In this document: positions 17,140-33,087 of the stretch, piece by piece
Position numbering within the stretch: position 1 is the stretch's first letter
Layout: each line of letters opens with the position of its first letter
IMG/VR virus record: IMGVR_UViG_3300036860_000542
Span: 18,418 to 82,417 of that record
Length of the DNA: 64,000 nt
Direction: 5' to 3' (one strand)
Source: a virus
Notes under the pieces: generated by a model
Databases searched by the model: none
Told to the model about the DNA's origin: nothing
Seen by the model: the letters and a program-made list of their open reading frames with translations, nothing else
Program-made: the position numbers and the translations under genes

Positions 17140-17469
17140 TTATCGGGAACGCTTGCCGAGAAAGTAGCCAAGAGCGCCCACAGCCACCATGGCGATAACG
17201 TTCATGGGGTCTTCGAGGATTCCGTCGAGTCCCTTCAAGCCCTTCGGCAGCTTCGAGTCGGCGATCTTCTTGACGCACCGCTTGAGCTTCTTGGAGTAGA
17301 TGAAACCGACCGGACACGGATCCTTCGGCGGATCAGGCTCCACCAGGAGGATGCGCTCCGCTCCCCACTGCGGTCCCCAGGTGGGGTACTGGATCGGGAA
17401 GGGGTACGGGTAGAATCCTCCGCCCCGCCGATGATGCCAACCAAGTCCGGTGCGTCCCATGTTCATCAT
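17140..17469 (-). CDS. Putative virion membrane protein (C-terminal TM plus basic tail)
   Basis: N-terminal RTGLGW; ends VIAMVAVGALGYFLGKRSR. Confidence 0.6.
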   Translation of the reverse strand: MMNMGRTGLGWHHRRGGGFYPYPFPIQYPTWGPQWGAERILLVEPDPPKDPCPVGFIYSKKLKRCVKKIADSKLPKGLKGLDGILEDPMNVIAMVAVGALGYFLGKRSR

Positions 17470-17753
17470 CCTTTCAGGAGACCGTACCCAACACCAGCAA
17501 GACCCACCAGACGCGCTGTCTTGCGCTCCATGCCGAGGAGACAGGCCACACCCATCGCGAGGAGCCCGAACTGCACAGCGGGCACCACAGAGCCCCAGGC
17601 GCCCAATCCGTCGGCGTTGCCGACGTACTGGAGCTGGGTGACGCCGCCCGTGTGGAACTTCCCGCTCAGCGGCGCCGGTGCCTCGGGCTTGCAGCACGGC
17701 TTGCCGACGTAGCAGTTGTTGCAGCACTTCTTCTTGGCGCCCTTGTGCTTCAT
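17466..17753 (-). CDS. Putative virion membrane protein with Cys-rich N-terminus
   Basis: KKCCNNC..PCC, DGLGA, two hydrophobic helices. Confidence 0.55.
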   Translation of the reverse strand: MKHKGAKKKCCNNCYVGKPCCKPEAPAPLSGKFHTGGVTQLQYVGNADGLGAWGSVVPAVQFGLLAMGVACLLGMERKTARLVGLAGVGYGLLKG

Positions 17754-18214
17754 CTGCCACCTCCGCACTCACAGAAATACCGAGACTTTCCGCATACTTG
17801 GCAGCGACCGTTCTTGCGAGTCGCGAGCTCGAGAGTGCTTCCACACCGCTTGCAGTGTCCGATCTCGAAGCGCTCCTCGTCGTCCTCACGACGACCGCCT
17901 GGGTGCGTCTCGGTTCGGAAGAGGCTGGGATCCGACTTGAGTCGCTCGTGGTAGGCGACGGGACAACTCTCCTGGCTGAACTTGTGGGTGGCGCGCTTGC
18001 GGCGCACGTGGACGGTGGTGGCACCACCCTTCGGATCGGTGACGACCTCGAAGCCAGCCGGCCCTGCAGCCTTGGTGAGCTCCTTCAGGAGGGCGTAGGA
18101 CGTGTTATCGTCGGCGTCGAACTGCATGGTCTCGACGCCCAGAGCTGTGAGTGTGTCGTAGACGAAGGCTTCAGCAGCGCTGCCTTCGGGAACGACCGCG
18201 TAGGCTCGAGTCAC
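17750..18214 (-). CDS. Zn-ribbon protein
   Basis: HCKRCGSTL, CQVC..CEC; GTG start overlapping the upstream stop. Confidence 0.5.
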   Translation of the reverse strand: MTRAYAVVPEGSAAEAFVYDTLTALGVETMQFDADDNTSYALLKELTKAAGPAGFEVVTDPKGGATTVHVRRKRATHKFSQESCPVAYHERLKSDPSLFRTETHPGGRREDDEERFEIGHCKRCGSTLELATRKNGRCQVCGKSRYFCECGGGR

Positions 18215-18639
18215 ACGTCCCTCGCGATGTTCTTCTCGATTGCGACTCGCCACCGGCAGAGACCAAGACCGAACTCCTGGCGCCTCCCTTCCGGTAGCTC
18301 CCAAGTGCATTCGAACGGCTCGACGGAGAGCTCGCCGGTTTCCGGCTTCCAATCCATGTCCTTGCGCTCCTGGCGCACGTAGAGGGCGTGCGGGGCACCG
18401 GGCATGGAGCACTTCGGGCAGATGAGGTGGAGGACGAAACGTCCATCCGTCAAGTAGAGGTCGGACTCGATCACCCGGTCACGCCAGCGGATGAGCGGGT
18501 GACCGATAGCCGACTTCGTCATGTCGATGGACGACTGGATACCGTGCTGTGCCGACTCCCCGGACGGATCGGGGACGTCACCAGCAATGTGGTAGAGGGA
18601 TTCGCGTTGAGGGTCGAAGGCAGTGCTCATGGTGTACAT
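18211..18639 (-). CDS. DUF6527-like Cys protein
   Basis: LICPKC..ELSVEPFECT..CRWRVAIEKN. Confidence 0.5.
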   Translation of the reverse strand: MYTMSTAFDPQRESLYHIAGDVPDPSGESAQHGIQSSIDMTKSAIGHPLIRWRDRVIESDLYLTDGRFVLHLICPKCSMPGAPHALYVRQERKDMDWKPETGELSVEPFECTWELPEGRRQEFGLGLCRWRVAIEKNIARDV

Positions 18640-18650
18640 CCTACCAGGAG

Positions 18651-18947
18651 CTACTTCCTCTTGCCACCACGCCTCTTCAGGAGGTAGATCCCACCGATCA
18701 CTGCCACTCCGCCCAAGATCCATGGCAGGTAGCTGGGGGACTCCTGGATCGTGACCGGCGCCGCAGCCTGCCCCTTCCCGAAGACGGAAGCGATCGCGTC
18801 GAAGCCGGACTTGATGGTCCCGCCCCAGTCTGTCTTCGCGGTGGTCGCAGCGGCCGGCTTCGGGGTCACGCTGCCAAGAATCCCACCGGTGATGCTTCCA
18901 GTGAGGGCCGGCGTCGCACCCATCCCGGTCTTGATGTACTGGCTCAT
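18651..18947 (-). CDS. Virion membrane protein, MSQY paralogue 3
   Basis: MSQYIKTGMGA..YLPWILGGVAVIGGIYLLKRRGGKRK. Confidence 0.7.
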   Translation of the reverse strand: MSQYIKTGMGATPALTGSITGGILGSVTPKPAAATTAKTDWGGTIKSGFDAIASVFGKGQAAAPVTIQESPSYLPWILGGVAVIGGIYLLKRRGGKRK

Positions 18948-19189
18948 TTCTTTCCTCCAGCCGCCTTGCGGCGACGCTTCAAGAAGTAGGCGCCGCCGAC
19001 GAGCGCGACGGCACCAAGCAGGTACCACTTGTACGTGTCCAAGAAACCGCCCGAAGGCGCGGCGGCGGCAGCGGCAGCGCGTTCGGCAGCTCGCTTGGCG
19101 GACACGCAGCGTTCCACGCCACCGGACCTACGATGAAGTTGTCCAGGACCGCAGGTCAAACCGAGACCGATGGGAACGTACTGGCTCAT
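18944..19189 (-). CDS. Virion membrane protein, MSQY paralogue 2
   Basis: MSQYVPIGLGL..YKWYLLGAVALVGGAYFLKRRRK. Confidence 0.7.
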   Translation of the reverse strand: MSQYVPIGLGLTCGPGQLHRRSGGVERCVSAKRAAERAAAAAAAPSGGFLDTYKWYLLGAVALVGGAYFLKRRRKAAGGKK

Positions 19190-19428
19190 CGCTTTCTGCC
19201 CTTCTTGCGTCCTCGGCGCTTGAGATAGATGACTCCGCCTGCAAGCGCCATGGTACCCAGCAGGTACCACTTGTACTTGGAGACGAAGCCTTCCTGCACC
19301 GGAGTGACCGTGGTTCCTGTTGGTCCTGTGCTCACCTTGACGCCGGCTTTGGCCAGCTGGGTGCTCAAGGTGGGAATCATCCTCGAGAAGACGCCAGGAA
19401 CCGCACCAACTGCGATGTACTGGCTCAT
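19186..19428 (-). CDS. Virion membrane protein, MSQY paralogue 1
   Basis: MSQYIAVGA..YKWYLLGTMALAGGVIYLKRRGRKK. Confidence 0.7.
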   Translation of the reverse strand: MSQYIAVGAVPGVFSRMIPTLSTQLAKAGVKVSTGPTGTTVTPVQEGFVSKYKWYLLGTMALAGGVIYLKRRGRKKGRKR

Positions 19429-20471
19429 GACCGCCTCCGTAGGAAGAGGAAGTAGATGGCCGCCGCGCCACCGGCGTAGAGGGCCCACTTCGGCACCTTG
19501 CTCAGCATGCCGGCCGCTGCGGCTGCAGGGAGTTCAGGAGCGGCCGGGGCCGGCCCGGCATCCTCTTCGCCTTCCTCTGGGGGAGCATCAGGGCTCCACG
19601 GGCCGCTGGGACCACCGCCTCCACCACCCCCGCCACCGGCGTAGGCTTCCGGCGGAAGAGGCATGGATGGACCCGGTACGATCGGCGTGAGACTCGAGAC
19701 CGGTCCTGGAGGCGACTGCACGAGCGGTTGCGCCGTCGTGGCGGATGCGAACGACTTGGTGGAGAGCGTCGCGAGCGTCGGCTTGACCAACGACCCGGTC
19801 TTGGGCAAGGAAATCGTCCGCGACGGAGCGGCCAGCTTCTCGGTGATCTGCTTGAACCAACCCTTGTGAAGGCCGCGATTGCCCGGCGCCGTCTTGGTGC
19901 CGAGTACGCGCTTCACCTTCTTCTTGGCAGCAGCACGCTGCGCAGCAGTGGGTACGAGCGGCATGGCTTTCTTGACCTCCGTCTGTTTCACAACCGCGGG
20001 CGCCGGGGCCTTCACCGGAAGGAGTACCGGGGCCGTCACAGCGGCCACGGGAAAAGTGGGGACGGTGGCCTTCGTCACAGGTGTGAGCGAAGAGACCGGC
20101 CCCGCCGGCATGGGAGCGATCAAACTTGGAGCCGCAACTCGCGTCGGCGCTGGGGCTGGCGTCGTCGAGATCGGAGCGAGTGCAGAGACGAGGCTTGGCA
20201 GAGGTGTCGCCACCGATCGGATCGGAGCGGCTGATACGACGAGCGGCTTCACCGACACCGGTGGGATGACCATCGGCTTCGCGGCCGTGGCACGAGCCAC
20301 AGCAGACACTGGGGCGGCCTTGGAGACCGCAATCGGAGCCGCCTTGGGCACAGGCTTCGGGGCGGGCTTGGGCGCAGGTCTCGCCACCGCCACCACCTTC
20401 TTGACGGCGGCCACGATCGGCTTGGGGGCCGTCACCGACAGGGTGAGGCCAAGGCTGCGTCTGTACGACAT
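19425..20471 (-). CDS. Pro/Ala/Thr/Ser/Val-rich low-complexity protein with C-terminal TM
   Basis: MSYRRSLGL start; extended PAPKP/TPV repeats; ends KWALYAGGAAAIYFLFLRRRS. Confidence 0.7.
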   Translation of the reverse strand: MSYRRSLGLTLSVTAPKPIVAAVKKVVAVARPAPKPAPKPVPKAAPIAVSKAAPVSAVARATAAKPMVIPPVSVKPLVVSAAPIRSVATPLPSLVSALAPISTTPAPAPTRVAAPSLIAPMPAGPVSSLTPVTKATVPTFPVAAVTAPVLLPVKAPAPAVVKQTEVKKAMPLVPTAAQRAAAKKKVKRVLGTKTAPGNRGLHKGWFKQITEKLAAPSRTISLPKTGSLVKPTLATLSTKSFASATTAQPLVQSPPGPVSSLTPIVPGPSMPLPPEAYAGGGGGGGGGPSGPWSPDAPPEEGEEDAGPAPAAPELPAAAAAGMLSKVPKWALYAGGAAAIYFLFLRRRS

Positions 20472-20812
20472 CAGCGCTTCCCCAGGGAGTACCCGATGAA
20501 GAAGGGGATACCCAGAACGGCGAGCGCGGCGACCGGCGCGACCCACTTGTGCTGCAGGGCGTACTTGTACGCCTTCAGGGGCGCCACCGCGTACTTGAGG
20601 CCGATACCAGCAGGCTTGGCGCCGCCAGGTTTGGCTGGCGGCTGCAGCGCGTTGATGTCCATGATGAGCCCCGTCACCTTGGGGAGTGCTGGGTCATCAA
20701 GGATCGCGGACGTGGCCTGCACAACTCCGCCCACCTTGCCGGCGTACTCGGCCACCGCGCCAGCGAGTGCTTGGCGGCGAGCTCTGCTCCGGTTGCGGTT
20801 GACGTAGCTCAT
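20471..20812 (-). CDS. Putative virion membrane protein
   Basis: Basic N-terminus ..ALAGA; C-terminal TM plus KR. Confidence 0.65.
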   Translation of the reverse strand: MSYVNRNRSRARRQALAGAVAEYAGKVGGVVQATSAILDDPALPKVTGLIMDINALQPPAKPGGAKPAGIGLKYAVAPLKAYKYALQHKWVAPVAALAVLGIPFFIGYSLGKR

Positions 20813-20920
20813 CAGATCCTCAAGTAGCCCGTCGATCTTCGTCTCCGTCCCTGAACACGTCTCCGGTAGTTCGTGCAGGGTAGGCCTCGCGAGGCCGACG
20901 GGCTAGTTCAAGAGCCGATG

Positions 20921-21532
20921 CTACTTCTTCCTCCTTCCGGCCAGACGCATCACCAGGTTGCCGACGCCCAGCTTGGTCCAGGCCAGGTAGGCGATCCCAA
21001 CGATCACGCCCCACTTCATGAGCTGGCCACTGGTGTCACACTGCCAGGCGCCGTACTTGGCGATGCACTCGTACTTCTCCTTCTCCTTCGCGTAGTCGGC
21101 GTAGGAGTTGATCGCCGCCATGAGCACTAGAGCCACGGCGCCAACCACGATCAACAGGGGCAGGATGCCCTGCGCCTGCGGGCCGGAGGGCGGTGGCGCC
21201 GCGCCGACGATGATCAGTCGAGCGAGGGTCGGAGCGTCCGATGGGAGACGGACGTTCGACCCGTATACCTCGAGCAGGAGCGCTTGCATCTTCGCCGCCA
21301 GCGTCGCCTCGATCTGAGCCCGTTCGGCCGCCTCTGTTGGGGAGAGCCCGGCGCGGCTGTTCATGTCGCGGTACTTGAGCCAGTCCTTCAAGGACCGCTT
21401 CATCTTGTTGAGCTCGACTCGAGGGTTCTTCATGGGGGTAGCTCCCATCCCACCGTAGTGGATGAGCTCCGCCAACGGCGCATCGGAATGCGGGATCTGG
21501 CGGACAGGAACGGTGTCGTAGTGCTTCGCCAC
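20921..21532 (-). CDS. Putative virion membrane protein (two TM segments)
   Basis: GTG start with GGAG RBS; HYGGMGA; two hydrophobic helices; basic tail RRKK. Confidence 0.65.
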   Translation of the reverse strand: MAKHYDTVPVRQIPHSDAPLAELIHYGGMGATPMKNPRVELNKMKRSLKDWLKYRDMNSRAGLSPTEAAERAQIEATLAAKMQALLLEVYGSNVRLPSDAPTLARLIIVGAAPPPSGPQAQGILPLLIVVGAVALVLMAAINSYADYAKEKEKYECIAKYGAWQCDTSGQLMKWGVIVGIAYLAWTKLGVGNLVMRLAGRRKK

Positions 21533-21540
21533 TTCGTCTC

Positions 21541-22155
21541 CTACATGTTGACGATGCGGTAGCCAGGCAGCGCGACCACGAGCTGGCCCTGCGTCGGCGG
21601 CGTCGAGCCGCTGAACGTGATGGCCTCGTAGGTCGGGGTGACGGCGATCGTCGTGTTCGGGGTGAACAGCGACGGCACCGGCAGCGGGATGACGTTCTCC
21701 GGCTGCGAGAGCAGTCCACCAGGAACCGGGGACGACTGGAAGTTGCGCTGCGACCCGGTGTCGATGAACTGGTAGCTGATGTCGATGAAGTCGGCCGCGA
21801 TGGTCTGCGTGGGGAGCTGCGCCGAGCACACCGGCCGCCACCGACCGAAGTTGGTGGCGCTGGAGGGCAGCGTCGGCTTCCACAGGATCATCGGGTAGTG
21901 GGTCATGATGAACGGGCCGTCCTGGGAGACCAGCATCTGGGCTGGGTTCCCCTGGCGACCGTTCACCGTGATGTCGAACAGCACGGTGCCGACGAGGGTA
22001 TAGAAGAGACGACGACCAGGGATGGCGTCGATCTCCTCCTGGACGGTGCGCGGCTTCTTGGCCGCCTCCTTCAGGATGTCCATCTCCTGTCGGAGACGCA
22101 TGATCTCCTGCTTGAAGGGGGCGAGGGCCTGTCTGAGGGCTGCGTTGTCGGACAT
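21541..22155 (-). CDS. Putative single-jelly-roll capsid protein 2
   Basis: N-terminal coiled coil then all-beta pattern (VSQDGPFIMTH, LFTPNTTIAVT, LVVALPGYRI); adjacent to candidate capsid protein 1. Fold inferred. Confidence 0.5.
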   Translation of the reverse strand: MSDNAALRQALAPFKQEIMRLRQEMDILKEAAKKPRTVQEEIDAIPGRRLFYTLVGTVLFDITVNGRQGNPAQMLVSQDGPFIMTHYPMILWKPTLPSSATNFGRWRPVCSAQLPTQTIAADFIDISYQFIDTGSQRNFQSSPVPGGLLSQPENVIPLPVPSLFTPNTTIAVTPTYEAITFSGSTPPTQGQLVVALPGYRIVNM

Positions 22156-22238
22156 CGGAAGCACTCCCTATACCCGGAGGTTGGGCTGGTCTGGTCGAAC
22201 ACCGGGTTGCGACTCGCCAGACCTTCGAGGGTAGAAGT

Positions 22239-22285
22239 GAGGGGGGAAGTCGGGCGGGGTGTGGGTGTACCCGACTTCCCCCCTC
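22239..22285. terminator. Perfect 16-bp inverted repeat between the two capsid genes
   Basis: GAGGGGGGAAGTCGGG (22239-22254) / CCCGACTTCCCCCCTC (22270-22285). Confidence 0.65.
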
Positions 22286-22296
22286 GTGTCGAACGA

Positions 22297-22875
22297 CTAC
22301 TGGACGTCGCGGGTCTGGAGGCCGTCGATGACGAACATGATCACCTTCTCGTCATCGGTGGCGCCCGTGTTCAGGTTCACCAGGGCGTCGGTGGAGCCCA
22401 CGGTGAAGAACTGGCACTGGACCGCGAAGTTCTGGCGGACCGGCACCATGATGGGCCGCGCCAGCTTCAGGATCGCCTCGTGGGTCGGATCGCCGAGGTT
22501 GAAGATGGACGTGGTGTCGTCCACCGAACCCCAGACGCCGCCGCCCGACGGGTAGTACCAGCACGGCGCCTGGAAGGCCGGCTTGTCACCCAGCGACAGG
22601 GTGAAGTAGAGCTGCGAAGCCACCCGCAGGTAGTTCGCACGACGGTTGGTGCCGTTGAAGTACAGCCAGCACCGCAGGGCCAGGATGACGTAGGTCTGAT
22701 CGGACGCGAGCTGGCCGGCGACCTGGAGGTTCGTGAGGTCCAGGCGGCCGATGTTCGCGTTGCCGAACAGCACCGTGGTCTGCTGGACCACCGGCGAGGG
22801 GGTGCCGGTGGTGCGGATGATGGTGTCCCAGAACGGCTGGTGACGACGTTCCTTGACTCCGTGAAGACGAGGCAT
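22297..22875 (-). CDS. Putative single-jelly-roll major capsid protein 1
   Basis: 192 aa, beta-rich (QPFWDT, TNLQVAGQL, PIMVPVRQNFAV, IMFVIDGLQTR); AAGGAGA RBS; strongly biased GC3 codons; flanked by hairpins. Fold inferred. Confidence 0.6.
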   Translation of the reverse strand: MPRLHGVKERRHQPFWDTIIRTTGTPSPVVQQTTVLFGNANIGRLDLTNLQVAGQLASDQTYVILALRCWLYFNGTNRRANYLRVASQLYFTLSLGDKPAFQAPCWYYPSGGGVWGSVDDTTSIFNLGDPTHEAILKLARPIMVPVRQNFAVQCQFFTVGSTDALVNLNTGATDDEKVIMFVIDGLQTRDVQ

Positions 22876-23009
22876 CTGGCTTTCTCCTTGCTCTCGACGT
22901 CCTCTGTTTTGTCTCGACCGAGCATCATTGCCGGTCTAGTGGGGTGACTTCCCCATCTGCAGACGTCGATCCAGCGGGTAGTGCAGCGGGCAGCGCGGAG
23001 TGAAGTGGA

Positions 23010-23039
23010 AGGTGGGGGCCCCCGAAGGAGCCCCCACCT
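23010..23039 (-). terminator. Stem-loop (UUCG-type loop on the minus strand) after the core-protein gene
   Basis: AGGTGGGGGC..GCCCCCACCT. Confidence 0.55.
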
Positions 23040-23048
23040 AGTCGCGTT

Positions 23049-24464
23049 CTAGTAGCCCCAGCCCCAGCCGCCGAAGATGCCGGCGTACAGGGAGTCGAGC
23101 TTGTCGGCGGCCGGCGTCCACTGGGGGACCGTTCGGACCATCGACCTGGAGGGCACAGGGGCCAGCATGCGGGCCGTGGGGACCGGGGCGACCATGGCAG
23201 GAGCACCGGCGGCGCCGAGCTCCTCGTAGGCACCGGTCTCCATGTACTCGCCGAGCTCCTCTTCGGCGCCCGTCTCGACGTACTCGCCCGTCTCGACGTA
23301 CTCGCCCATGTCCTGCTGGAAGGCGCCGAGGGCCTCGTCGTACACGCCCTCCGCCGCGCCCAGGGCAGCCTGGACCGACAGCGGGGCGTACGCCTTGATG
23401 AGGGCCTCGATCAGGTTCACGCCCAGGCCGATCATGATCGGCGAGTGGTACCGGGACAGGAACCGGACCTTCTTGGTGGCGATGCTGCCCAGGACCACCA
23501 TGCCGGCATGGAGGACAGGACCAGCGTGGTTGCCCAGCTTGTCCGCCACCATGCCGCCCAGGCGGCTCACGATCAGCCGGCCACCGACCATGGCGCCGAC
23601 TACCGGAAGGGCAGCCTTGGCCACGGTCATGAGCCCGCCGAGCGGGTTCTTGCGGAGGCGGAAGCCCCGCAGGATGCCACCACGACGCCGGCCATGACGG
23701 CGCCGACGCGGGTTGTGACGCCGACGCCGACGGCGACGGGGATTCGCCAGCACGGGGGCGAAGGCATTGCGGCGACGACGCCGAGCGTGACGACGCCGAC
23801 GAGGATTCCGACGAGCCTTGCGACGCCGACGCTTCCGGCGCGGGTTCATCAACGGCTCACCCGCTGTGAAGTGCCGACCACCGGCGTACTTCTTCCGCCG
23901 GGTCCGCCACGCCTTCTTGGCCGCACGACGCCGACGCGCCTTCCCGTAGCTCTTCCGGCGCACCTTGCCACGGCGGGCCTTCCGACGCTTGCGGAAGCCC
24001 TTGGGTCCGTACTTCTTCCGCCGGGTCCGCCACGCCTTGAGGGCGGCGCGACGGCGCTTGCTCGACTTCCTCTTCTTCGCCATCGGGGTTCTCCTTCTCT
24101 TGGGCCGTCGCGCCTTCCGGCGCGGGTTGGTGTACAACAGGGCCGCGTTGCGGCGGCGACGCCTCCGGCGCGGGTTGGCCAGCGCCGTCATGTGGGGGTT
24201 CTTGCGGCGGCGCCGAGCCTTGCCGAACTTCTTGTTGTGGGCCCGCCAGTAGCGCTTGAGGCCGATCGGCATCTTGCGCGAGATCTTCACAGGACCCTTC
24301 GGACGGCGCGCCTTGGAGCGCTTCCGCTTCGGGTTCAGGCGGGACGCCCGAACAGCAGCGAGGCCGCCGCGGGCAGTGGAAGCAGTTCGACGGGCCTTGA
24401 TGAGGCCGAGCTTTCGCCGGAGGGCTGCGGTTCTTCCAGGAGGATTGACGAACCAGGTTGGCAT
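23049..24464 (-). CDS. Arg/Lys-rich protamine-like core protein with NP repeats, membrane segment and acidic GEY repeats
   Basis: N-terminal ~275 aa dominated by R/K runs separated by about ten xNP motifs; then hydrophobic helices; then GEYVET/GAxEEL repeats. Confidence 0.75.
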   Translation of the reverse strand: MPTWFVNPPGRTAALRRKLGLIKARRTASTARGGLAAVRASRLNPKRKRSKARRPKGPVKISRKMPIGLKRYWRAHNKKFGKARRRRKNPHMTALANPRRRRRRRNAALLYTNPRRKARRPKRRRTPMAKKRKSSKRRRAALKAWRTRRKKYGPKGFRKRRKARRGKVRRKSYGKARRRRAAKKAWRTRRKKYAGGRHFTAGEPLMNPRRKRRRRKARRNPRRRRHARRRRRNAFAPVLANPRRRRRRRHNPRRRRHGRRRGGILRGFRLRKNPLGGLMTVAKAALPVVGAMVGGRLIVSRLGGMVADKLGNHAGPVLHAGMVVLGSIATKKVRFLSRYHSPIMIGLGVNLIEALIKAYAPLSVQAALGAAEGVYDEALGAFQQDMGEYVETGEYVETGAEEELGEYMETGAYEELGAAGAPAMVAPVPTARMLAPVPSRSMVRTVPQWTPAADKLDSLYAGIFGGWGWGY

Positions 24465-24592: not shown

Positions 24593-25021
24593 TCATCTAC
24601 GCCTGGGGGAGGATAGAGCGGAATCCAGCTTAGATTCCAAGCGGTTAAGAGATTCGAGAATCGACCGAAGTCGTACCTCCTGCTCCGCTTTGGATACCTC
24701 GAGCGTCTTCACACGCTCGTCGAGGGTCTTCTGCATGGCGGTGTACTCCGCCCTCGCGCTCACGAAGCTCTCCGCGTCGGGGTACTTCCCGAGACGGAAC
24801 ACCGTCACCGCGATCGGCACACCCATGGTGATGACGAAGGCGCACACCCACGATGCCACCTTCGCGATCGACGGACGAAGCATGTTCTCGATCCACGAGA
24901 ACTTCGTATTGCCCTGGTTGAGGCTGTTCTTCACCTCTTCCTTGAAGTGCGCGAAGGTGTGCTCAATGACGAGCATGCGATCGCGCAGCTCCTTGAACTC
25001 TTCGGCTTCCTGTGGAGTCAT
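24593..25021 (-). CDS. Membrane protein with coiled coils
   Basis: Central TM VASWVCAFVITMGVPIAVTVF flanked by heptad-like segments. Confidence 0.6.
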   Translation of the reverse strand: MTPQEAEEFKELRDRMLVIEHTFAHFKEEVKNSLNQGNTKFSWIENMLRPSIAKVASWVCAFVITMGVPIAVTVFRLGKYPDAESFVSARAEYTAMQKTLDERVKTLEVSKAEQEVRLRSILESLNRLESKLDSALSSPRRR

Positions 25022-25728
25022 CCGGTTATGCCTTCCGGTCTCACGTCCAGCATCCCGCCCCACAACGCGGCCTCGAGCCTCGCTCGAGGTCCCTTCACGT
25101 CGATGATGAGCAGGGCGCGACCGGAAGGAACAGCGTAGAGCTCAGGATACGGTCGCGCCTCTGCATCAGACTTCCTGCCGGCGGCGTTCTTGTACTGGAA
25201 GCCGAGACACAGGCCGAGCAGGTAGAGGCTCTCCACCTTCTTCAGCCAACTAGGAACCTCTTCCAGCGGACCCTCATCGATCATGGAGTCCGTTGGCACG
25301 TACACACCCACTCCGGCCTCGTGCTCGTGGATGTAGTCGTTGAACTTCGACTCCCACTTGTCGGAGCGATAGAGGATGTGGTAGGCATCGCCGATGTACA
25401 TGAGCTCCGAAGGCATCTGAAAGCCTTCCAGAATGCCGAACTCCTGGGGATCGAACTTGGTGAAGCGCTTGTAACCCTTCACCGCGTCCATGAAGTCGGG
25501 GGGAGGTTCAGGTGGGTTCTTTTGTGGACGCTCGCCCAACTTGCGAAACATGTCCTCTTTCGAGAAACCCAGGTATCCGTGCATGTGATGCTTGCCCATG
25601 CCAGCGTCGGCATCAAACCAGGCGTTGCTCTGTCGATCAAAGTAGACCGTCGCGATGGTGTTGCCATCGTCGTCAACCACCAGTTGATTGCCGGTGTCCG
25701 CGTAGTCCTTGGCACGTTTCAACTTCAC
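25018..25728 (-). CDS. Hypothetical virion-module protein
   Basis: Overlapping operonic ORF; internal QKNP; YRSDKW..YIHEH..GITG end. Confidence 0.65.
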   Translation of the reverse strand: MKLKRAKDYADTGNQLVVDDDGNTIATVYFDRQSNAWFDADAGMGKHHMHGYLGFSKEDMFRKLGERPQKNPPEPPPDFMDAVKGYKRFTKFDPQEFGILEGFQMPSELMYIGDAYHILYRSDKWESKFNDYIHEHEAGVGVYVPTDSMIDEGPLEEVPSWLKKVESLYLLGLCLGFQYKNAAGRKSDAEARPYPELYAVPSGRALLIIDVKGPRARLEAALWGGMLDVRPEGITG

Positions 25729-26147
25729 CGAATCGCCTCCAACGTCTCGACGAAGTGGCGGTTGGAGAGCGCGCTATCTCCACGCAGAGATCGGATTCTG
25801 GAGACGACGGTTCGAGCACTCATACCCATGATCCGCATCGCCATGGCAGCCACCCAGGCGGAACGGTTGCGGCCCGCAAAACAGGTGACGAGAACCTTCT
25901 TGCCCCTCTCCAACGCATCCGCCACCACGACCGCAGTGCGAAGCGCCCACGCACGCTCCGTCAAGGTGGGCTTGGCGTCGTCAAGGCCTACGTAGACGAG
26001 GTTCTGTCCGGTCTCTGGGAATCGAGGTTGGTACTCAAGGGCAGTGAAGACGATCATATCGAAGCCCTTCGGAAGAACCATGGGAGCCGAACCGATGAAT
26101 AGGTTCGGATACACCTCAGTTCTGTCTGCGAGCTCCTTCATGTTCAT
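25725..26147 (-). CDS. Dual-specificity/tyrosine protein phosphatase (CX5R)
   Basis: LFIGS, LDD general acid, VLVTCFAGRNRS, R..ALSNRHF. Confidence 0.9.
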   Translation of the reverse strand: MNMKELADRTEVYPNLFIGSAPMVLPKGFDMIVFTALEYQPRFPETGQNLVYVGLDDAKPTLTERAWALRTAVVVADALERGKKVLVTCFAGRNRSAWVAAMAMRIMGMSARTVVSRIRSLRGDSALSNRHFVETLEAIR

Positions 26148-26428
26148 CTCATGATGCGCCAGAGGCCGTAACCGAGCAACCCCAGGCCAATGTACAACGA
26201 CCAAGAGGAGCCGCCGAGATCGAAGTCTCCCAATCCTCGAGCGATCTGGCCACGAGCAGCTGCGCCCTCACCGATTTTCCTCACGCCAGCAGGCAGTGCC
26301 CAACCAGCTTGGTCTGAAGCCACACGGGTGCCGAGATGAGATGGTGCCTTCGGGAACGCGGCGGTCTGATGGCCGTCCTCGTAGTAGTCGTACCGGCGCA
26401 AGGCCGGCTTCCAGACCGAGTAGATCAC
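26144..26428 (-). CDS. Putative virion membrane protein
   Basis: ARGLGD then C-terminal TM. Confidence 0.65.
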   Translation of the reverse strand: MIYSVWKPALRRYDYYEDGHQTAAFPKAPSHLGTRVASDQAGWALPAGVRKIGEGAAARGQIARGLGDFDLGGSSWSLYIGLGLLGYGLWRIMR

Positions 26429-26613
26429 TTCTTTCCGCCCAGCCAGATCAGAGCCATCACCAGGACGAAGGTTCCGCCGAGGCCGAGAAGAACACTCTTC
26501 CCGTCCACCGCACCAAGACCATGCTTCCTGGAGGGAGGAGCCGGGTAGCCGCGCCAGTCCCAGGCGTAGGGCGCCATGCCGTGGGAGTAGAATCCATCCT
26601 TGGGAGCTGCCAT
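26425..26613 (-). CDS. Putative virion membrane protein
   Basis: KHGLGA then TM plus KK. Confidence 0.65.
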   Translation of the reverse strand: MAAPKDGFYSHGMAPYAWDWRGYPAPPSRKHGLGAVDGKSVLLGLGGTFVLVMALIWLGGKK

Positions 26614-26617
26614 CGGA

Positions 26618-27592
26618 CTACCTCCGCTTCTTCTTGGGCTTGAAGATGAAGAAGGCCGCGACGCCGATGCCGGCGGCGGCGACCATGCCGTACCCGGACG
26701 TGAGGAAGTTCATGATGCCGCTTCCCAGGAGCGACGTGCCGGCGCTACCCGCGTCGGGCGACATCGATGACACGAGGCTCTGCACGGAGGCCACCGCCTG
26801 GCCCGCGGTGCCAAGGTACTTCCTGATTATGATGGCCGTCTTGTCGGCCGAGGCCGCCACGACGAACGGACGCTGGTACTTCTCCCAGGCGATGTAGACA
26901 CCCTGGAGATGGTTCGCCTCATCCGTGGTGAGCTTACGATTGTAGCGATCCAAGAATAGCTCCTTGGCCCTCCGCGCTGCGGCAGCCGCCGTCTTCGGGC
27001 CGATCTTCCCATCGATCGCCACGCCGAGGACCGTCTGGAGCTGCTTGAACTTGGTGGTCACGGCTGGGCTCTTGCCGAAGCAATACTCCGCGCTGCCACC
27101 GCCCACACAATCGATCGACGTGCTGGGGATCGTATAGATGATGGCGGCGTCGAGCGGAGACACTGAAGCACCAAGGCTGATCGGCTCGCCGATCGCTGTG
27201 CGCTGCGTCTGCTTCCAGTTGATCTGCTTCATCGGCTTCAGGTTCCACCGCTTGTTGCGGCGGCAGAGCTTGTAGATATGCATCCACGGAACCGCCGGCC
27301 AGTTGCGGCCCGCAACCTGAGCGATGGCAGACTGAGTCGCCGCGTTCATGAGGCCGTTTCTCGGGACGTTGAAGCCGAGCTCGTTGAGGCACTTCTGGAT
27401 GCCTTGCACGACCACCATGACCGGCTGCGAGGACGGATCGCTCTCCCCAGGCGTGAGGAAGAGAGTCGGGACCGCCATGCTGGCCAGATACGGTCGCACG
27501 CCCATGTCGGCGATGATCTGCCGAACGTCGAGCGGGCCGATCGGGAACTCAGGCGCTTCGGCTTCGCCGTTCTTCTTCTCTTCCTTTGCCAT
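26618..27592 (-). CDS. Membrane-anchored protein with two peptidoglycan-binding (PG_binding_1-like) motifs
   Basis: IQKCLNELGF..NGLMNAATQSAI and LQTVLGVAIDGKIGPKTAAA; C-terminal TM plus KPKKKRR. Confidence 0.7.
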   Translation of the reverse strand: MAKEEKKNGEAEAPEFPIGPLDVRQIIADMGVRPYLASMAVPTLFLTPGESDPSSQPVMVVVQGIQKCLNELGFNVPRNGLMNAATQSAIAQVAGRNWPAVPWMHIYKLCRRNKRWNLKPMKQINWKQTQRTAIGEPISLGASVSPLDAAIIYTIPSTSIDCVGGGSAEYCFGKSPAVTTKFKQLQTVLGVAIDGKIGPKTAAAAARRAKELFLDRYNRKLTTDEANHLQGVYIAWEKYQRPFVVAASADKTAIIIRKYLGTAGQAVASVQSLVSSMSPDAGSAGTSLLGSGIMNFLTSGYGMVAAAGIGVAAFFIFKPKKKRR

Positions 27593-27594
27593 GA

Positions 27595-28227
27595 TCAATC
27601 TCTCCTTCGAGTCACCAGGTGCGTGACGTAGAACGCGCCAAGACCGATGCCGGCCCACTTCATCCAAGTGGGCACGCTGGGTAGGAGCCACCAGGCGGCC
27701 TTGAATGGCGCCTTGACGATCGCCTGCGCCACGTCGTGCGCGGCTTCAGCAACCGCTTCTCCGAACATCGTGTACGCTCGCGGTGCCAAGAAGATCCCGC
27801 CGGACCGGAGCACAAGCTGTTCGGTGGACTTCCAGAAGCTCACCGCCAAGCTCTCCGGCAGAATCGAGTTGCCGTAGGCGTTCGCGAGCGCGGTGTTGAT
27901 CCAACCAGTCTCCGACTGCCAGGCGGGGTACTCGCGCTTCCACGCGATACGGCCGGCGGAAGTGAGCAGCGGTGCTGCCACTCCGAATAGGAGGGCATTG
28001 AAGGCCTCATCGTTGTTCACGCGCTTGTTGACTTGCGTGAACGGCTCCTCCCAGAAGTTCTTCAGCTTCAACCATTGCGTGCCCGAGAGGTTGGGGTATC
28101 GAATGTCCGTCCGACCGGGAAGGAAGACGGAAGTCTCTCCCCAGACACGCCTCGCCTCGTTCTTCTGAGCAGCGAGCATGCCCACGAAGTCGCGGTAGTT
28201 GACGGTCTGGACGGTGAAGTTCGCCAT
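27595..28227 (-). CDS. Putative virion membrane protein
   Basis: C-terminal WMKWAGIGLGAFYV..RRRD. Confidence 0.65.
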   Translation of the reverse strand: MANFTVQTVNYRDFVGMLAAQKNEARRVWGETSVFLPGRTDIRYPNLSGTQWLKLKNFWEEPFTQVNKRVNNDEAFNALLFGVAAPLLTSAGRIAWKREYPAWQSETGWINTALANAYGNSILPESLAVSFWKSTEQLVLRSGGIFLAPRAYTMFGEAVAEAAHDVAQAIVKAPFKAAWWLLPSVPTWMKWAGIGLGAFYVTHLVTRRRD

Positions 28228-28235
28228 GGCTTACC

Positions 28236-29363
28236 TCACTTCAACAGGATGACAGCAAGGAGGATGGCGCCCCCGCCGATGGCCACCGGGATGATGGGAA
28301 AGCCACCGCCGGTAGAGCCAGCATCGCCAGGCGTCGGAGCGCAAAGACCTTGCGCCACGTCGGCGCCGGTCGAACCAGCCTGCGCGCCCTGTGGTCCACC
28401 AGCCGCCGCGCCGCCCGCCATCGCGCCGAGCTTGAGAAGGCCGCTGTTGGCGATCTTGCACGCCACCTTCCCGACCTTGTCGAGCGCGTTCTTCGCCTTG
28501 TCGGCGACCTTGCTGGCCGTCCCGGGGAAGGTGAGCGCAAGAGACGCCCCACCAGTAGCAGGAGCGAGGATGACGCCTGCTCCCTTCTTGGCGTAGCTCT
28601 TCACGGAGCTCCACAGGCCACCGAGACCATCAGCCCCAGCGCAGCACGCACCGAGACCCATGAGGCCGCTGGTGGGCGCCTTGCCCGTCTTGCCCATCTC
28701 CATGAGCTGGTCGAGCGTGTGGTTGGCAACGACGACGGTGATGGCCTTCAGGAGCGCCGTCTTCGCGTCGTACTTCTTCGCCTTCATCAGCAACTCGGCC
28801 TTGGACTCCACCGCGGCCGGGAAGCTCGAGTCGATGTTCCCAAGCACCGCCTGGAGGAAGATCTTCCTCTCGATCGGTGTCCTGAACTGGCGGGCATCGG
28901 CCATCAGCATGCCGGCGATCTGCTTGGCGAGCTGCGCCACGCCATCACGACCGCCGCCCGGAGCGTCGGCAAGCGCGCCGAGCGAGCTCCGACCAGCGAG
29001 CGTCGGGTTCGACAAGGTGCCGTACTTGCCCGCGCTCTTGTTCTCGTCGAAGATTCCGACGCCGACGCGCTCGGTGTGCTCACGCGCCGTGACGATCTCC
29101 GGGATGAGACCGAAGATCGTCCCGCGCTTCGTGTAGTGGGTGGTTCGCACGCCCTGGCCGAGCGGTTCGTCACGGACCGACTGCGGAAGGATGTACGGAG
29201 GCCAACCGCCTGGGTTCCGCGGGTTGCGCAGGCCCTGAACGTCGATCGTCTTCCTCTTGCGGTACTTCGAGACGATAGCGCCTCGACGGAACGGCTCGTC
29301 GATGACGTTCTGCGGGATCGCGTACCCGGCGATGTAAGGAGATCCGCGTCTCAGAAGAGCCAT
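28236..29363 (-). CDS. Putative virion membrane protein
   Basis: AAGGAGA RBS; SSLGA, MGLGA, DGLGG motifs; amphipathic segment; C-terminal TM. Confidence 0.7.
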   Translation of the reverse strand: MALLRRGSPYIAGYAIPQNVIDEPFRRGAIVSKYRKRKTIDVQGLRNPRNPGGWPPYILPQSVRDEPLGQGVRTTHYTKRGTIFGLIPEIVTAREHTERVGVGIFDENKSAGKYGTLSNPTLAGRSSLGALADAPGGGRDGVAQLAKQIAGMLMADARQFRTPIERKIFLQAVLGNIDSSFPAAVESKAELLMKAKKYDAKTALLKAITVVVANHTLDQLMEMGKTGKAPTSGLMGLGACCAGADGLGGLWSSVKSYAKKGAGVILAPATGGASLALTFPGTASKVADKAKNALDKVGKVACKIANSGLLKLGAMAGGAAAGGPQGAQAGSTGADVAQGLCAPTPGDAGSTGGGFPIIPVAIGGGAILLAVILLK

Positions 29364-29364
29364 G

Positions 29365-29886
29365 TCACTTTCTCCTTTTGGACTTGCGAGCTGCAACCTC
29401 AAGATAGCGGATCATCCGACGCAACGTGTTCACGTTGTCGTCGATCAGACCAAGAGCCATGTTGCAGATGTGGCAGAGTAACCCGCGTACCGCGCCTGTT
29501 TTATGATCGTGATCGATCGGCCACTTGTGATGATCTCTCCACGGACCACGAGTCTCTTTCGAGCCGCAAATGGCGCAGGCGTGACCCTGTCTCTGTAGCA
29601 TGCGATTGTATTCAGCATCCGTAAGACCGAACTTTCTTAGCCTTCGGGCAGCCGAACGTAGGACTTTTGTCTCCGGCGACTTTTCGTATGCGCGCCTTTC
29701 AGCTAGGTACTTTTTCCAAGCTGCAGGATCTTCTTTCTTCAGCTTCTGCTTCCAGCGCTTGATGCGTTCTCGCGCCTTCCTTTTACACTCTTCATACCAA
29801 GCAGGGTCCTCTTCGGCTTTCTTTCGATGCCAAAGGGTGGACGCGCTCTTTCCGCCCCGATCCTTCATGTACATAGTATAGCTCAT
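29365..29886 (-). CDS. Free-standing HNH / endonuclease VII-type homing endonuclease
   Basis: FGLT..Q..CAIC..IDHDHKTGAVRGLLCHICN.ALG; more AT-rich than neighbours. Confidence 0.9.
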   Translation of the reverse strand: MSYTMYMKDRGGKSASTLWHRKKAEEDPAWYEECKRKARERIKRWKQKLKKEDPAAWKKYLAERRAYEKSPETKVLRSAARRLRKFGLTDAEYNRMLQRQGHACAICGSKETRGPWRDHHKWPIDHDHKTGAVRGLLCHICNMALGLIDDNVNTLRRMIRYLEVAARKSKRRK

Positions 29887-30440: not shown

Positions 30441-30467
30441 CGGAGAAGTCGTGGACTTACACCTGAG

Positions 30468-30497
30468 AATATACAGGACCAGGGCCTAGGGGTGCAA
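30468..30497 (-). promoter_or_regulatory. Sigma70-like promoter
   Basis: TTGCAC-N18-TATATT upstream of the transglutaminase-like gene. Confidence 0.5.
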
Positions 30498-30501
30498 CTT
30501 G

Positions 30502-32142
30502 CTACTCGACGGGCGGGGATTCCGTGGGGACTTCAGGGGCTTCCGCAGGCGGCGCTTCGTCTTCGGTCATGCCGAGCATGGCCGCAACGCACTTCCTCAG
30601 CCAGTTCCGACCGCGCTGCGAGTACAGGATCGACCCGTCCGGCGGGTTGGCGGCCTGAATGAAGGCGTCCGGTCCCATTTGCCGGAGAGCGGAGATGATC
30701 TCCGTGGGCACCATCGAGCGTGCCGAGACGGCGAAGGCCATCGGATCTGTCCCATTGGTGATGGCCTGCTCGACGAACTGCATCGCCGCCGCGACCTCCA
30801 TCGGGTTCAACTCGATGACGTGACCCTGAGAAGGCGCTTGCGGCTTCGGCTTGCGAGTCGAAACCACTGCGGTCTCGCCCTGTGCTGCGGCACGCGCTGC
30901 TTGCGCCGCTCTCTTCCGCTTCAGCACCTCCGGGTTCACCTGAGGAGGAGCAGCGGGCGGGGCGTTCTCGACTCGAGACGCCACAGCCTGTGCCATCGGG
31001 CTCTGCATCACGGTCTGCAGCACACGCTCCCAAGTGGAAGCCGGCTCCTGTTCGCCAGGACCGAGGATCTCGAGAGCATTCTTGAGCTGCGCCACCTGCT
31101 CGACGGCGTCGAGAGGACCCTTCTCCTTGATGTCGCGCAGCTTCGCGCACTCGGTCTTCGACTCGGCGAGCTGCCTCTCGAGGTCGGCGACCCGACCCTT
31201 GAAGCCGTCGAGCCGGGCCTCGTAGCTCTGCTCGACGGACTTCAACGCCTGGCCATGCGTCTCGCGCAGCATGCTGATCTCACGATCGTGCGAGCGATCG
31301 CGTCTCTCGAGCTCCGCTTGAAGGCGAGTGCGCTCCGCTTCGACGTCATGGCGATTGTTCTCTCGGAGGGTACGCAGCTCCGAGTCGAACTGAGCCCGCA
31401 GTGCATCGATGCGCCCGGACTCGCCCGCCACCAGGTGCTCGAACGTCTTCTCGATCACCGACGGTGTGGACGGTGTCTTGTTGGCGTTCGTGATGAGGTT
31501 GAGGATCTGGGCATCCTTCTCCGCCATCTGCCGACGCATCTCCATCATCTCTTGCTGCAGCATCTTGACGGCCGGCGGATCGAAGGCGAGCTTCATGAGC
31601 TCCGCATCGCCTCCGCCCTTCTTGCGGTTCTCGTCCTCGAGCTCCCAGGCTCTCTTCTGGCTGAGCTCTGCGGCGCGGGCCATGTGGTCGAGGGCCTTGC
31701 CCTGCAGGGCGACATCGTCACCGTCCTTGAGCATGGTCTTGGGGGCACCGGGCGTCTCGGCAAGCAGCGCACCACTCAGCCGCGGATCACCTTCGATCTC
31801 GAACGACTTCGCACCCGCGTAGGTCCAACCGCCCTTCGGGTTCGGTCGGAACGTCTTCACCTGGTACTTGCCGCCACCGAAGCGCTGCTTGATGTCTTTC
31901 TCGTCGAAGGGCTCGTCGTACTCCTCCAGGAAGCCGGCGATGTGGTGGCCTTGCCACTCACGAGGGTATTTCCTCTCGAGCTTGATCTTGAGCGCACCCG
32001 AGGTGCCGAGCTCCTGGAGCCACTCGAAGATGGACTTGTCCTCCGCCTGCGCGATCGTCTGCGCGGACATGGACACGTCCTCCTTCTGCTTGCCCTTGAG
32101 CGGCGTCACAGGTGCGACGTCATCGTAGGTCTGTTCACTCAT
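30502..32142 (-). CDS. Large coiled-coil protein
   Basis: AAGGAG RBS before MSEQTY; long E/R/Q heptad region. Confidence 0.75.
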   Translation of the reverse strand: MSEQTYDDVAPVTPLKGKQKEDVSMSAQTIAQAEDKSIFEWLQELGTSGALKIKLERKYPREWQGHHIAGFLEEYDEPFDEKDIKQRFGGGKYQVKTFRPNPKGGWTYAGAKSFEIEGDPRLSGALLAETPGAPKTMLKDGDDVALQGKALDHMARAAELSQKRAWELEDENRKKGGGDAELMKLAFDPPAVKMLQQEMMEMRRQMAEKDAQILNLITNANKTPSTPSVIEKTFEHLVAGESGRIDALRAQFDSELRTLRENNRHDVEAERTRLQAELERRDRSHDREISMLRETHGQALKSVEQSYEARLDGFKGRVADLERQLAESKTECAKLRDIKEKGPLDAVEQVAQLKNALEILGPGEQEPASTWERVLQTVMQSPMAQAVASRVENAPPAAPPQVNPEVLKRKRAAQAARAAAQGETAVVSTRKPKPQAPSQGHVIELNPMEVAAAMQFVEQAITNGTDPMAFAVSARSMVPTEIISALRQMGPDAFIQAANPPDGSILYSQRGRNWLRKCVAAMLGMTEDEAPPAEAPEVPTESPPVE

Positions 32143-32650
32143 CGGAATCTCCTTCGGGTTCGTCGTTGGATTCCTCGACGGCCTCATCCGCATCACCCTC
32201 GGGGTCTCCAGCTTCCTCGCTCTCATCCGAGGTCGTATGCTCCTCGACGGCCTCCGCCGTGAGCTCGAACGCGGTGAGGTACGCGGCGGCCTGGCCCTGC
32301 AGACGCTTGGCCGTGGTGTCATCGAGAGGGACGCCGGCCTTCATCTTGGCGACCTCGTCCGCGATGACCTTCCCCAGCTCGAGGGTAGCCAGGATCTGAT
32401 CAGCGAGCTCGGGTTGGATCAGACTGTCGGACCCATCGATGAGAGCGTCCATCGCCTGCTCGAGACGCACGATGCGAGCTCCGAAGTGATCCGCCATCGT
32501 CTGCATGAGCGGGTAGGCGTTGTCACGGAACTCGTTCTTCGCCTCGATGAACTTGGCCTTGGAGACGCGCTGCTCCGCTTTCGCCAAGTCCTCCATCAGG
32601 AAGGCATGCTCCTCTTGTCCTTCGGTGGTGTCTTCCGGCTTGTCCATCAC
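32135..32650 (-). CDS. Acidic helical protein
   Basis: AAGGAG RBS; D/E-rich tail; operonic. Confidence 0.7.
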   Translation of the reverse strand: MMDKPEDTTEGQEEHAFLMEDLAKAEQRVSKAKFIEAKNEFRDNAYPLMQTMADHFGARIVRLEQAMDALIDGSDSLIQPELADQILATLELGKVIADEVAKMKAGVPLDDTTAKRLQGQAAAYLTAFELTAEAVEEHTTSDESEEAGDPEGDADEAVEESNDEPEGDSDE

Positions 32651-33087
32651 TTCTTCTCCTTCTTGCGAGGCGCCAGGTAACGCTGGCGAGCGTGTTCACG
32701 ATTCGCGATGTCCATAGGGTCCATGGGGACCCACTCGGAGCATTCGAAGACGCAGTCATCGGTGAGGTCGAGCTCCACACCAGGGATGACCTTGCAGATG
32801 CGGTTGATCTGCCTTGGCGCCCGATCGAGGCCTCTCGACTCCACCTCCGCGAAGGAGTGGATCTCGATGTAGTGACGACAGGGACCACGTAGGCAAACGA
32901 AGTTGTCCGGGCTGGCCTTCGGAAGCGGTTCGGGTCTCCCAAGGTACCCGACCATGTTCGGGCCGCCGTCCTTCGCCGGAGGCGGCGCCGGGTCCGGTTC
33001 CACGTCCTTCCAGGGGTCGAGCTCCTTTCGCTTCTCGTCGTCGAGCTTGTCGCCGTCTTTACCCACCTGCCGGTTGCCGATCTTCAT
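32647..33087 (-). CDS. Cys-rich hypothetical protein, first gene of the late operon
   Basis: CLRGPCRHY..C..C..C; GGAG RBS. Confidence 0.7.
   Translation of the reverse strand: MKIGNRQVGKDGDKLDDEKRKELDPWKDVEPDPAPPPAKDGGPNMVGYLGRPEPLPKASPDNFVCLRGPCRHYIEIHSFAEVESRGLDRAPRQINRICKVIPGVELDLTDDCVFECSEWVPMDPMDIANREHARQRYLAPRKKEKK

Follow-up and report, generated by a model that had tools for sequence, protein, structure and literature searches.

Paired predicted jelly-roll capsid genes in the probable morphogenesis operon of an 82-kb virus from soil, with a proposed resemblance to the archaeal portoglobovirus SPV1

A 64,000-nt stretch of DNA (the window), corresponding to bases 18418-82417 of the 82,417-bp virus record IMGVR_UViG_3300036860_000542, was analyzed with a focus on its minus-strand gene block at 17.1-33.1 kb. 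This block (17140-33087) is best explained as the morphogenesis operon of a complete, circular or circularly permuted 82.3-kb double-stranded DNA virus of a soil bacterium. It contains two adjacent genes, named cand1 and cand2, for predicted single-jelly-roll capsid proteins, together with genes for an Arg-rich candidate core protein and for many membrane-anchored proteins. In the structural models, the virus resembles the archaeal portoglobovirus SPV1 more than the Halopanivirales.

The whole genome is probably in hand, with about 82.3 kb of unique sequence, because the first 128 bp of the record are repeated at its end and the record belongs to the direct terminal repeat (DTR) class of IMG/VR. 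An earlier note on the same DNA had predicted a genome larger than 64 kb, and the record is 82.4 kb with the terminal repeat. A gene for an SNF2-family helicase crosses the record ends through the 128-bp repeat (window 63162-64000, continuing at L001 96-1034), which fits a circular or circularly permuted genome.

The two capsid candidates are encoded as follows (aa, amino acids).

22297..22875, minus strand: cand1, a 192-aa predicted jelly-roll protein, proposed as the main (hexamer-forming) capsid protein
21541..22155, minus strand: cand2, 204 aa from its ATG, a long N-terminal helix and a predicted jelly roll, proposed as the second capsid protein (vertex protein or shell-to-membrane linker)

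Both are real open reading frames (ORFs) at the places where the earlier note had pointed to two adjacent, beta-rich genes of about 200 aa, and each is preceded by a Shine-Dalgarno-like site. Their GC content at third codon positions (GC3), 0.92 for cand1 and 0.91 for cand2, is the top of the block and among the highest in the window. Hundreds of homologues were found in metagenomes at E ≤ 1e-3, namely 654 of 690 candidates for cand1 and 508 of 723 for cand2. The 120 cand1 matches listed were 70-98% identical and located on contigs of up to 112 kb, and the 119 cand2 relatives listed, excluding the protein of the window itself, were 49-81% identical. An exhaustive profile search with cand1 recovered 464 clusters (50% identity) at E ≤ 1e-3 and 127 at E ≤ 1e-10.

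Structures were predicted by AlphaFold2 from alignments of 41 (cand1) and 43 (cand2) sequences. The cand1 model was a beta-sandwich (pLDDT 69.5, pTM 0.68), and the cand2 model consisted of an N-terminal 30-residue helix and a beta-sandwich (pLDDT 87.9, pTM 0.74); both proteins are predicted eight-stranded jelly rolls. Foldseek searches against PDB, a check proposed in the earlier note, gave lists dominated by viral jelly-roll coats for both models. P23-77 VP17 came first for cand2, and SH1 and SPV1 appeared at probability 0.90-0.96 for cand1. In structural comparison, the best matches of the two proteins were capsid proteins of membrane-containing tailless viruses, and for both of them SPV1 scored above every Halopanivirales chain. 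Scanned against Pfam and PHROG, the pair returned nothing usable, the lone match being Prefoldin_2 (E 0.07), which covers the N-terminal helix of cand2. No similarity between cand1 and cand2 was detected by hhalign, and a predicted complex of the two scored 0.00, which is no evidence either way.

Six distant cand1 relatives (P0282, P0346, P0320, P0317, P0292 and P0289) reach 350-480 aa via insertions of 100-250 residues, all placed in one loop (profile positions ~70-90) with the jelly-roll core kept. By analogy with capsid 'tower' insertions, these loops may form surface towers. The cand2 domain was found in none of 149 cand1 relatives examined, hence no fusion was seen. One relative, P0046, fell just under the Pfam cut-off for DUF7592; this lead was dropped, as the family had no match in the genome and no paper mentioning DUF7592 was found.

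Related loci were found on seven genome-bin contigs, four of them 69-89 kb long, and at eleven places in IMG/VR, of which eight lie on contigs 75.6-86.4 kb long. The cand2 gene adjoins cand1 in 8/8 IMG/VR relatives. The conservation analysis, by tblastn of 51 proteins against four complete relatives (G001, G004, G006 and G007), showed that 11 of the 51 are kept in all four, with nine of the eleven encoded within the block. This core comprises cand1 (the most conserved gene), cand2, a 229-aa membrane protein whose gene runs across the start of the window, two small anchored proteins (26144-26428 and 20471-20812), and the following six proteins.

23049..24464, minus strand: 471-aa Arg-rich protein that carries a hydrophobic domain and ends in an acidic repeat tail, a proposed core protein that would condense DNA and be anchored in the inner membrane
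30502..32142, minus strand: 546-aa coiled-coil protein with a possible scaffold or size-determining role, 25-37% identity over ~545 residues
29883..30440, minus strand: transglutaminase-core-like cysteine enzyme (Pfam Transglut_core, E 3.5e-6, 27.7 bits, cut-off 23), 46-60% identical
25018-25728, minus strand: 236-aa protein, nothing significant by phmmer against PDB
18211-18723, minus strand: Cys-rich 170-aa protein
49006..49407, plus strand: 133-aa beta-rich protein, a vertex or penton candidate, 28-46% identity

The polymerase, reductase, helicases, Sak4-like ATPase, exonuclease, 549-aa P-loop protein, endonuclease VII and all fibre-like genes were found in none of the four relatives. The retention of the particle module together with the absence of these genes argues that the lineage swaps its replication and host-recognition modules, and the gene comparison suggests that the replication/recombination module is exchanged wholesale. 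The 546-aa protein has no P-loop, no PDB sequence match by phmmer and sub-threshold Pfam and PHROG matches only. For the 133-aa protein, searches of Pfam, PHROG and PDB sequences were all negative, and hhalign detected no likeness of its profile to that of cand1 or cand2. The transglutaminase-like enzyme may be a maturation protease or a cross-linker.

The Arg-rich protein contains 30.7% Arg and 12.4% Lys in residues 1-290 (43% together, net charge +124) and a single hydrophobic segment at 275-293; no match to it was found in PHROG. Its composition and position suggest that it condenses DNA. The gene is located immediately upstream of cand1 here and in five of the seven genome-bin loci, where the synteny counts rest on neighbouring genes because the crude GC3-based gene caller dropped cand1 and cand2. 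Loci L005 and L008 gave no Arg-rich match upstream of cand1, for which a gene-calling error is possible.

Long GC-rich hairpins lacking T tracts were observed at 22876-23048, past the stop of the Arg-rich gene and with a UUCG-type loop, and at 22156-22296, past the stop of cand1. One possible role of these hairpins is to stabilise or process the mRNA and thereby fix how much core protein is made relative to shell protein. A scan for consensus terminators and promoters around the capsid genes gave no sites.

A C-terminal membrane anchor followed by a basic tail was detected by a strict pattern in 7 of 24 curated ORFs in 17140-33087, versus 1 of 98 crude ORF calls elsewhere. Reading of the translations added four anchored proteins which the pattern narrowly misses (18944-19189, 20921-21472, 27595-28227 and 28236-29366). 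The total of about eleven agrees with the 'about ten' proteins with a C-terminal transmembrane segment and basic tail counted in the earlier note.

The same note had reported no terminase, portal, HK97 or tail genes in the window and had suggested a search of the rest of the contig for terminase and portal and for an FtsK- or A32-like packaging ATPase. Six frames of the whole 82-kb record, searched at E ≤ 10, gave no match to Terminase_6N, TerL_ATPase, Phage_capsid, Phage_portal, FtsK_SpoIIIE or Pox_A32, while the controls of this search gave matches in 3-14 reference genomes. Among 38 (Pfam) and 39 (PHROG) distinct proteins, none fell into a terminase, portal, head, tube, sheath or baseplate family, and none of eight relatives (seven with DTR, 94-100% complete) matched Terminase_6N, FtsK or Phage_capsid at E ≤ 1. 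The earlier statement that no packaging ATPase is visible thus holds and need not be limited to the window, since none was found in the whole genome and FtsK was found in none of the eight relatives. A Walker-A scan of six frames yielded three credible P-loop ORFs only.

P-loop ORF 1, 283 aa: Sak4-like (phrog_124, 9e-16)
P-loop ORF 2, 477 aa: RecD-like by reading of its translation only, without a family-library scan
P-loop ORF 3, 549 aa: near DUF5906/VapE helicases per Atlas, as a lead only; phmmer against PDB gave nothing significant

The three Walker-A proteins have no homologue in the four complete relatives; the SNF2 helicase, also encoded in the genome, was left out of that test. The conserved core contains no NTPase, which is the strongest argument against a cryptic packaging motor. 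A packaging role was weighed for the 283-aa protein and rejected, the protein being Sak4-like, unconserved and part of an apparent exonuclease-Sak4-SSB recombination module. A 405-aa protein with high GC3 was considered as a hidden HK97 capsid protein and rejected as DUF932-like.

In the ICTV Portogloboviridae profile, the outer shell of SPV1 is made of two single-jelly-roll proteins, VP4 forming hexamers and VP10 pentamers; beneath it lies a lipid layer in which numerous membrane and subcapsomer proteins are found, and VP1 condenses the circular double-stranded DNA into a core. A passage of PMC8812541 describes SPV1 as having no packaging ATPase. Each of these four traits (shell, lipid layer, condensed core, no ATPase) has a known or putative counterpart in the present virus: the models relate the predicted single-jelly-roll shell proteins to SPV1 VP4 and VP10 (PDB 6oj0), no packaging ATPase was found by the models searched, a lipid layer would go with the approximately eleven tail-anchored proteins clustered with the capsid genes, and the conserved Arg-rich protein encoded next to the capsid genes is the candidate for condensing a core. 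Both viruses also encode a glycosyltransferase and a methyltransferase. Membership in Portogloboviridae itself is not indicated, as that taxon is defined by a genome of ~20 kb, a hyperthermophilic Sulfolobales host and sequence relationship, whereas here the genome is 82.4 kb, the habitat is soil and no sequence match was found. SPV1 has a 20.2-kb genome without polymerase and a hyperthermophilic archaeal host; the present virus is fourfold larger (82 kb) and carries bacterial-type genes including peptidoglycan enzymes. Unlike SPV1, it encodes its own DNA polymerase A (PolA) and ribonucleotide reductase (RNR) and a Walker-A protein read from its translation as a RecD-like helicase. No sequence similarity between the two is detectable, and the proposed core protein of the present virus, 471 aa long, is protamine-like and fused to a membrane domain.

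Several points weigh against the assignment of this block to an SPV1-like particle. The Foldseek search against PDB gave no match at E ≤ 1e-3 for either model, the confidence of the cand1 model is only pLDDT 69.5, and cand2 searched against BFVD gave unspecific jelly rolls as top matches, with SPV1 VP4 at rank 46. The family profiles of cand1 and cand2 gave chance matches only against PDB sequences, with no capsid protein among them. The absence of an ATPase was judged from a few Pfam models and the Walker-A pattern, so a divergent or host-supplied motor may exist, and the hallmark search covered the named models, other Pfam families for terminase, portal and capsid not being searched. Several plus-strand proteins resemble tail fibres, and a weak tape-measure PHROG match was obtained (E 0.035). 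CheckV gives the record a completeness figure of 50, a value countered by the terminal repeat and by the equal size of the relatives. The architecture of the particle is predicted here from the genes.

An oversized true member of the Halopanivirales type, as the earlier note had proposed, would be P23-77- or SH1-like, with two vertical single-jelly-roll proteins and ATP-driven packaging via a special vertex by an unrecognisably divergent ATPase. In its general nature the proposal is supported, as a tailless virus with twin predicted jelly-roll capsid genes, a probable membrane and an unusually large genome. Paired adjacent single-jelly-roll genes are found in Sphaerolipoviridae, Simuloviridae and Matsushitaviridae (SH1, HHIV-2, HCIV-1, P23-77 and IN93) as in the present genome. 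We know of no Arg-rich core protein as a feature of Halopanivirales. The FtsK-HerA packaging ATPase that these viruses have, according to a passage of PMC8812541, was not found by Pfam FtsK_SpoIIIE, Pox_A32 or the Walker-A scan, neither in six frames of the genome nor, for FtsK, in the eight relatives, and each P-loop ORF found either has a full or provisional assignment to replication or recombination or is unconserved in the relatives. SPV1 also outscores any Halopanivirales chain for both capsid candidates. Halopanivirales genomes of 16-19 kb and ~30 kb, as given in published abstracts, compare with 82 kb here; their habitats are extreme, whereas this virus comes from soil, and no sequence similarity was detected. 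This explanation is considered unlikely.

Other membrane-containing viruses were compared as well. No double-jelly-roll candidate, as in the Bamfordvirae families Tectiviridae, Corticoviridae and Autolykiviridae, was seen among the two proteins folded. The phage SSIP-1 has a genome about half the size of the present one. A passage of PMC6356626 describes SSIP-1 as a tailless membrane phage of bacteria with PRD1-adenovirus-type architecture, two capsid protein types and hardly any database similarity, and on that description it shares with the present virus the bacterial host, the two capsid protein types and the database-poor genome. A solved SSIP-1 capsid structure was not found in literature searches. 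In tblastn against 50,697 GenBank phage records, in which the inclusion of SSIP-1 was unchecked, cand1, the 546-aa protein and the transglutaminase-like enzyme had no match and cand2 gave a chance match at E 0.4.

An alternative considered improbable is a tailed phage with capsid (HK97), portal and terminase proteins too diverged to be matched, in which cand1 and cand2 would be jelly-roll cement, decoration or fibre-tip proteins. The known jelly-roll cement proteins of tailed phages (KHP40 7dou_4 and Pam1 7eel_H) are accessories of 124-140 aa on an HK97 shell. The three proteins that define Caudoviricetes, an HK97-fold capsid protein, a portal and a large terminase, were not detected in the present genome by the models searched, and the proteins folded were cand1 and cand2. 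The four hallmark Pfam families had no match in the genome, two of them also none in the eight relatives, and the 39 PHROG-scanned proteins contained no such family either. The 'head' or 'tail' category labels that did occur came from phrog_1224 on a peptidoglycan-binding stretch, phrog_10356 on two fibre-like proteins, the M23 peptidase domain, which is also part of some tape-measure PHROGs, and a weak tape-measure match at E 0.035. The fibre-like genes are found in none of the four complete relatives, the sole other high-GC3 protein of 400 aa is DUF932-like, and the core kept in all four is devoid of P-loop proteins, its unassigned members above 250 aa being the coiled-coil and Arg-rich proteins only.

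That the element is instead a large plasmid or other non-viral mobile element, with jelly rolls acting as carbohydrate-binding or surface proteins and the anchored proteins as an envelope or secretion module, is very improbable: it carries ParB, integrase, DUF932-like and glycan-synthesis genes, and jelly rolls are common in cellular carbohydrate-binding proteins according to a passage of PMC8812541, but no conjugation or plasmid-replication family turned up in general scans (no search aimed at them was made), endonuclease VII, an anchored M23 peptidase, fibre-like proteins and a protamine-like protein are present, the relatives are narrow in size (75-88 kb) with terminal repeats, and the module is among the most conserved parts while replication genes swap, which is typical of viruses.

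An SPV1-like assembly without a packaging motor is considered fairly likely. The Arg-rich 471-aa protein would neutralise and condense the replicated genome, and its hydrophobic domain would tie the nucleoprotein to a virus-specified patch of host membrane. This patch would be loaded with the approximately eleven tail-anchored viral proteins, whose genes and clustering are observed. Over the membrane, cand1 and cand2 would close an icosahedral shell, with cand1 forming the bulk of the capsomers and cand2, the 133-aa protein or both placed at the vertices or as links between shell and membrane. The 546-aa coiled-coil protein and the transglutaminase-like enzyme may provide scaffolding and maturation. 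The genome would be enclosed by condensation and co-assembly and not by pumping, as suggested by the lack of any match to a packaging ATPase or terminase model and of any P-loop protein in the conserved core. Host recognition and entry would be carried out by the variable plus-strand fibre and beta-helix proteins together with the anchored lytic enzymes.

The remaining genes of the block are listed in the order of transcription.

32647-33087, minus strand: Cys-rich 146-aa protein, first gene of the operon
32135-32650, minus strand: acidic 171-aa protein, second gene of the operon
29365..29883, minus strand: endonuclease VII of the Holliday-junction resolvase type (Pfam Endonuclease_7, E 7e-23; phrog_2914, E 7e-32), found in 0/4 relatives
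26144..29366, minus strand: five consecutive membrane-anchored proteins (28236-29366, 27595-28227, 26618-27589, 26425-26613 and 26144-26428), each with a C-terminal hydrophobic stretch and basic tail
25725-26144, minus strand: dual-specificity phosphatase (Pfam DSPc, E 3.6e-9), in 3/4 relatives
24593..25021, minus strand: 142-aa protein with a central transmembrane segment (59-77) and a C-terminal coiled coil, in 0/4 relatives
17140..21472, minus strand: run of small membrane-anchored proteins (20921-21472, 20471-20812, 19425-20471, 18944-19189, 18651-18947, 17466-17768 and 17140-17433), identified from translations and the anchor pattern

The first two operon genes (32135..33087) have homologues in loci L002 and L006 and in one of the four complete relatives, and no family match. 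The endonuclease VII gene lies within the morphogenesis operon and overlaps the end of the transglutaminase-like ORF; it is regarded as accessory because none of the four relatives has it. A possible role, particular to this virus, is the trimming of branched DNA ahead of enclosure. The anchored protein at 26618-27589 has peptidoglycan-binding repeats, with PG_binding_3 and PG_binding_1 just below the Pfam cut-offs. The consecutive small anchored proteins in 18651-20812 on the minus strand share an MSQY or MSY start and similar anchors at the end, with unrelated middles.

A variable module of lytic and fibre-like genes is located on the plus strand at 48403-57262.

50297..50917, plus strand: M23 peptidase with a C-terminal anchor and basic tail (phrog_7767, E 3.7e-22), a candidate virion-borne lytic enzyme

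This peptidase was the sole match to the anchor pattern outside the block and is kept in one relative. The module also encodes the conserved 133-aa protein, a 197-aa protein with weak PHROG matches only (a transglycosylase role is a guess from sequence), the two phrog_10356 'virion structural protein' matches, a Gly-rich 286-aa protein, a GDSL lipase, and a 669-aa protein read as a beta-helix, for which no family match above threshold was obtained. Other than the 133-aa protein and, in one relative, the peptidase, no member of the module is conserved; these variable proteins are likely spikes and entry enzymes.

A glycan-synthesis set is located directly downstream of the virion operon (window 1315-16563). 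By Pfam scans, it contains a GDP-mannose 4,6-dehydratase, two more epimerase/dehydratase genes, several GT2/GT4-type glycosyltransferases and two class-24 methyltransferases, and it may serve capsid glycosylation. The glycosyltransferase at 14612-15976 has homologues in two of the four complete relatives, and a tyrosine integrase is encoded at 9206-10165 among the glycan genes. Between the divergent minus- and plus-strand blocks, at 33100-35600, the crude gene calls gave short, weakly coding ORFs only. Further along the plus strand (37875-44280), genes for a DUF932-like protein (GC3 0.90), a HATPase_c-like protein (phrog_6077, E 4e-60) and a ParB-like protein stand side by side, a grouping that resembles plasmid leading or partition regions; the DUF932-like gene alone recurs, in one relative. 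A search of the window for tRNA genes was negative. The other 18.4 kb of the record encode a 978-aa PolA, a class II RNR and a RecD-like helicase candidate, all three labelled by reading of translations only, as well as a Sak4-like ATPase strongly supported by PHROG (phrog_124, 9.2e-16) and a Cas4-like exonuclease (6.3e-7) and an SSB-like protein (2e-4) with weak support.

Twelve sequencing runs contained part of the stretch; three of them contained at least half of its words, and two of these are possibly the source. Eleven of the twelve were labelled as soil metagenome and none was RNA, in line with the non-extreme habitat proposed earlier. The Myxococcota host hinted at in the earlier note found no support: the seven related genome-bin contigs are labelled as five different groups (three Gemmatimonadota and one each of Galbitalea, Peribacteria, Kiloniellales and 'Deltaproteobacteria'), a disagreement that gives no host assignment. 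The long contigs among them (68-89 kb, approximately the size of the virus genome) are probably mis-binned, and no relative inside a clearly chromosomal contig was seen among the related contigs. The lineage is widespread, with genomes of approximately 70-110 kb, and apparently undescribed; literature searches found no paper describing it.

Known prokaryotic jelly-roll viruses with an inner membrane are small, at ~10-45 kb, and to our knowledge the motor-less SPV1 design comes from a single archaeal family of hot springs. It is proposed, tentatively and as a view that could well turn out to be wrong, that the present virus belongs to a bacterial counterpart of the archaeal portogloboviruses: a global soil and freshwater lineage of tailless viruses of 70-170 kb, without a motor, in which a membrane-anchored protamine-like protein condenses the genome inside a membrane and a single-jelly-roll shell. 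Detection tools built on tailed-phage hallmarks mis-score such genomes, as the CheckV figure for this DTR genome illustrates. If the proposal is true, it would bear on the portoglobovirus-like ancestor of helvetiaviruses proposed in a passage of PMC8812541, and a new high-rank taxon would be merited. The size limit of the jelly-roll/membrane architecture in prokaryotic viruses would be raised, and DNA encapsidation without a motor would become testable in a bacterial system. The 'ancestral' capsid design of the SPV1 type would then cease to be an archaeal relic and would instead mark a bacterial virus line, major yet overlooked, whose genomes have reached the size of those of large phages.

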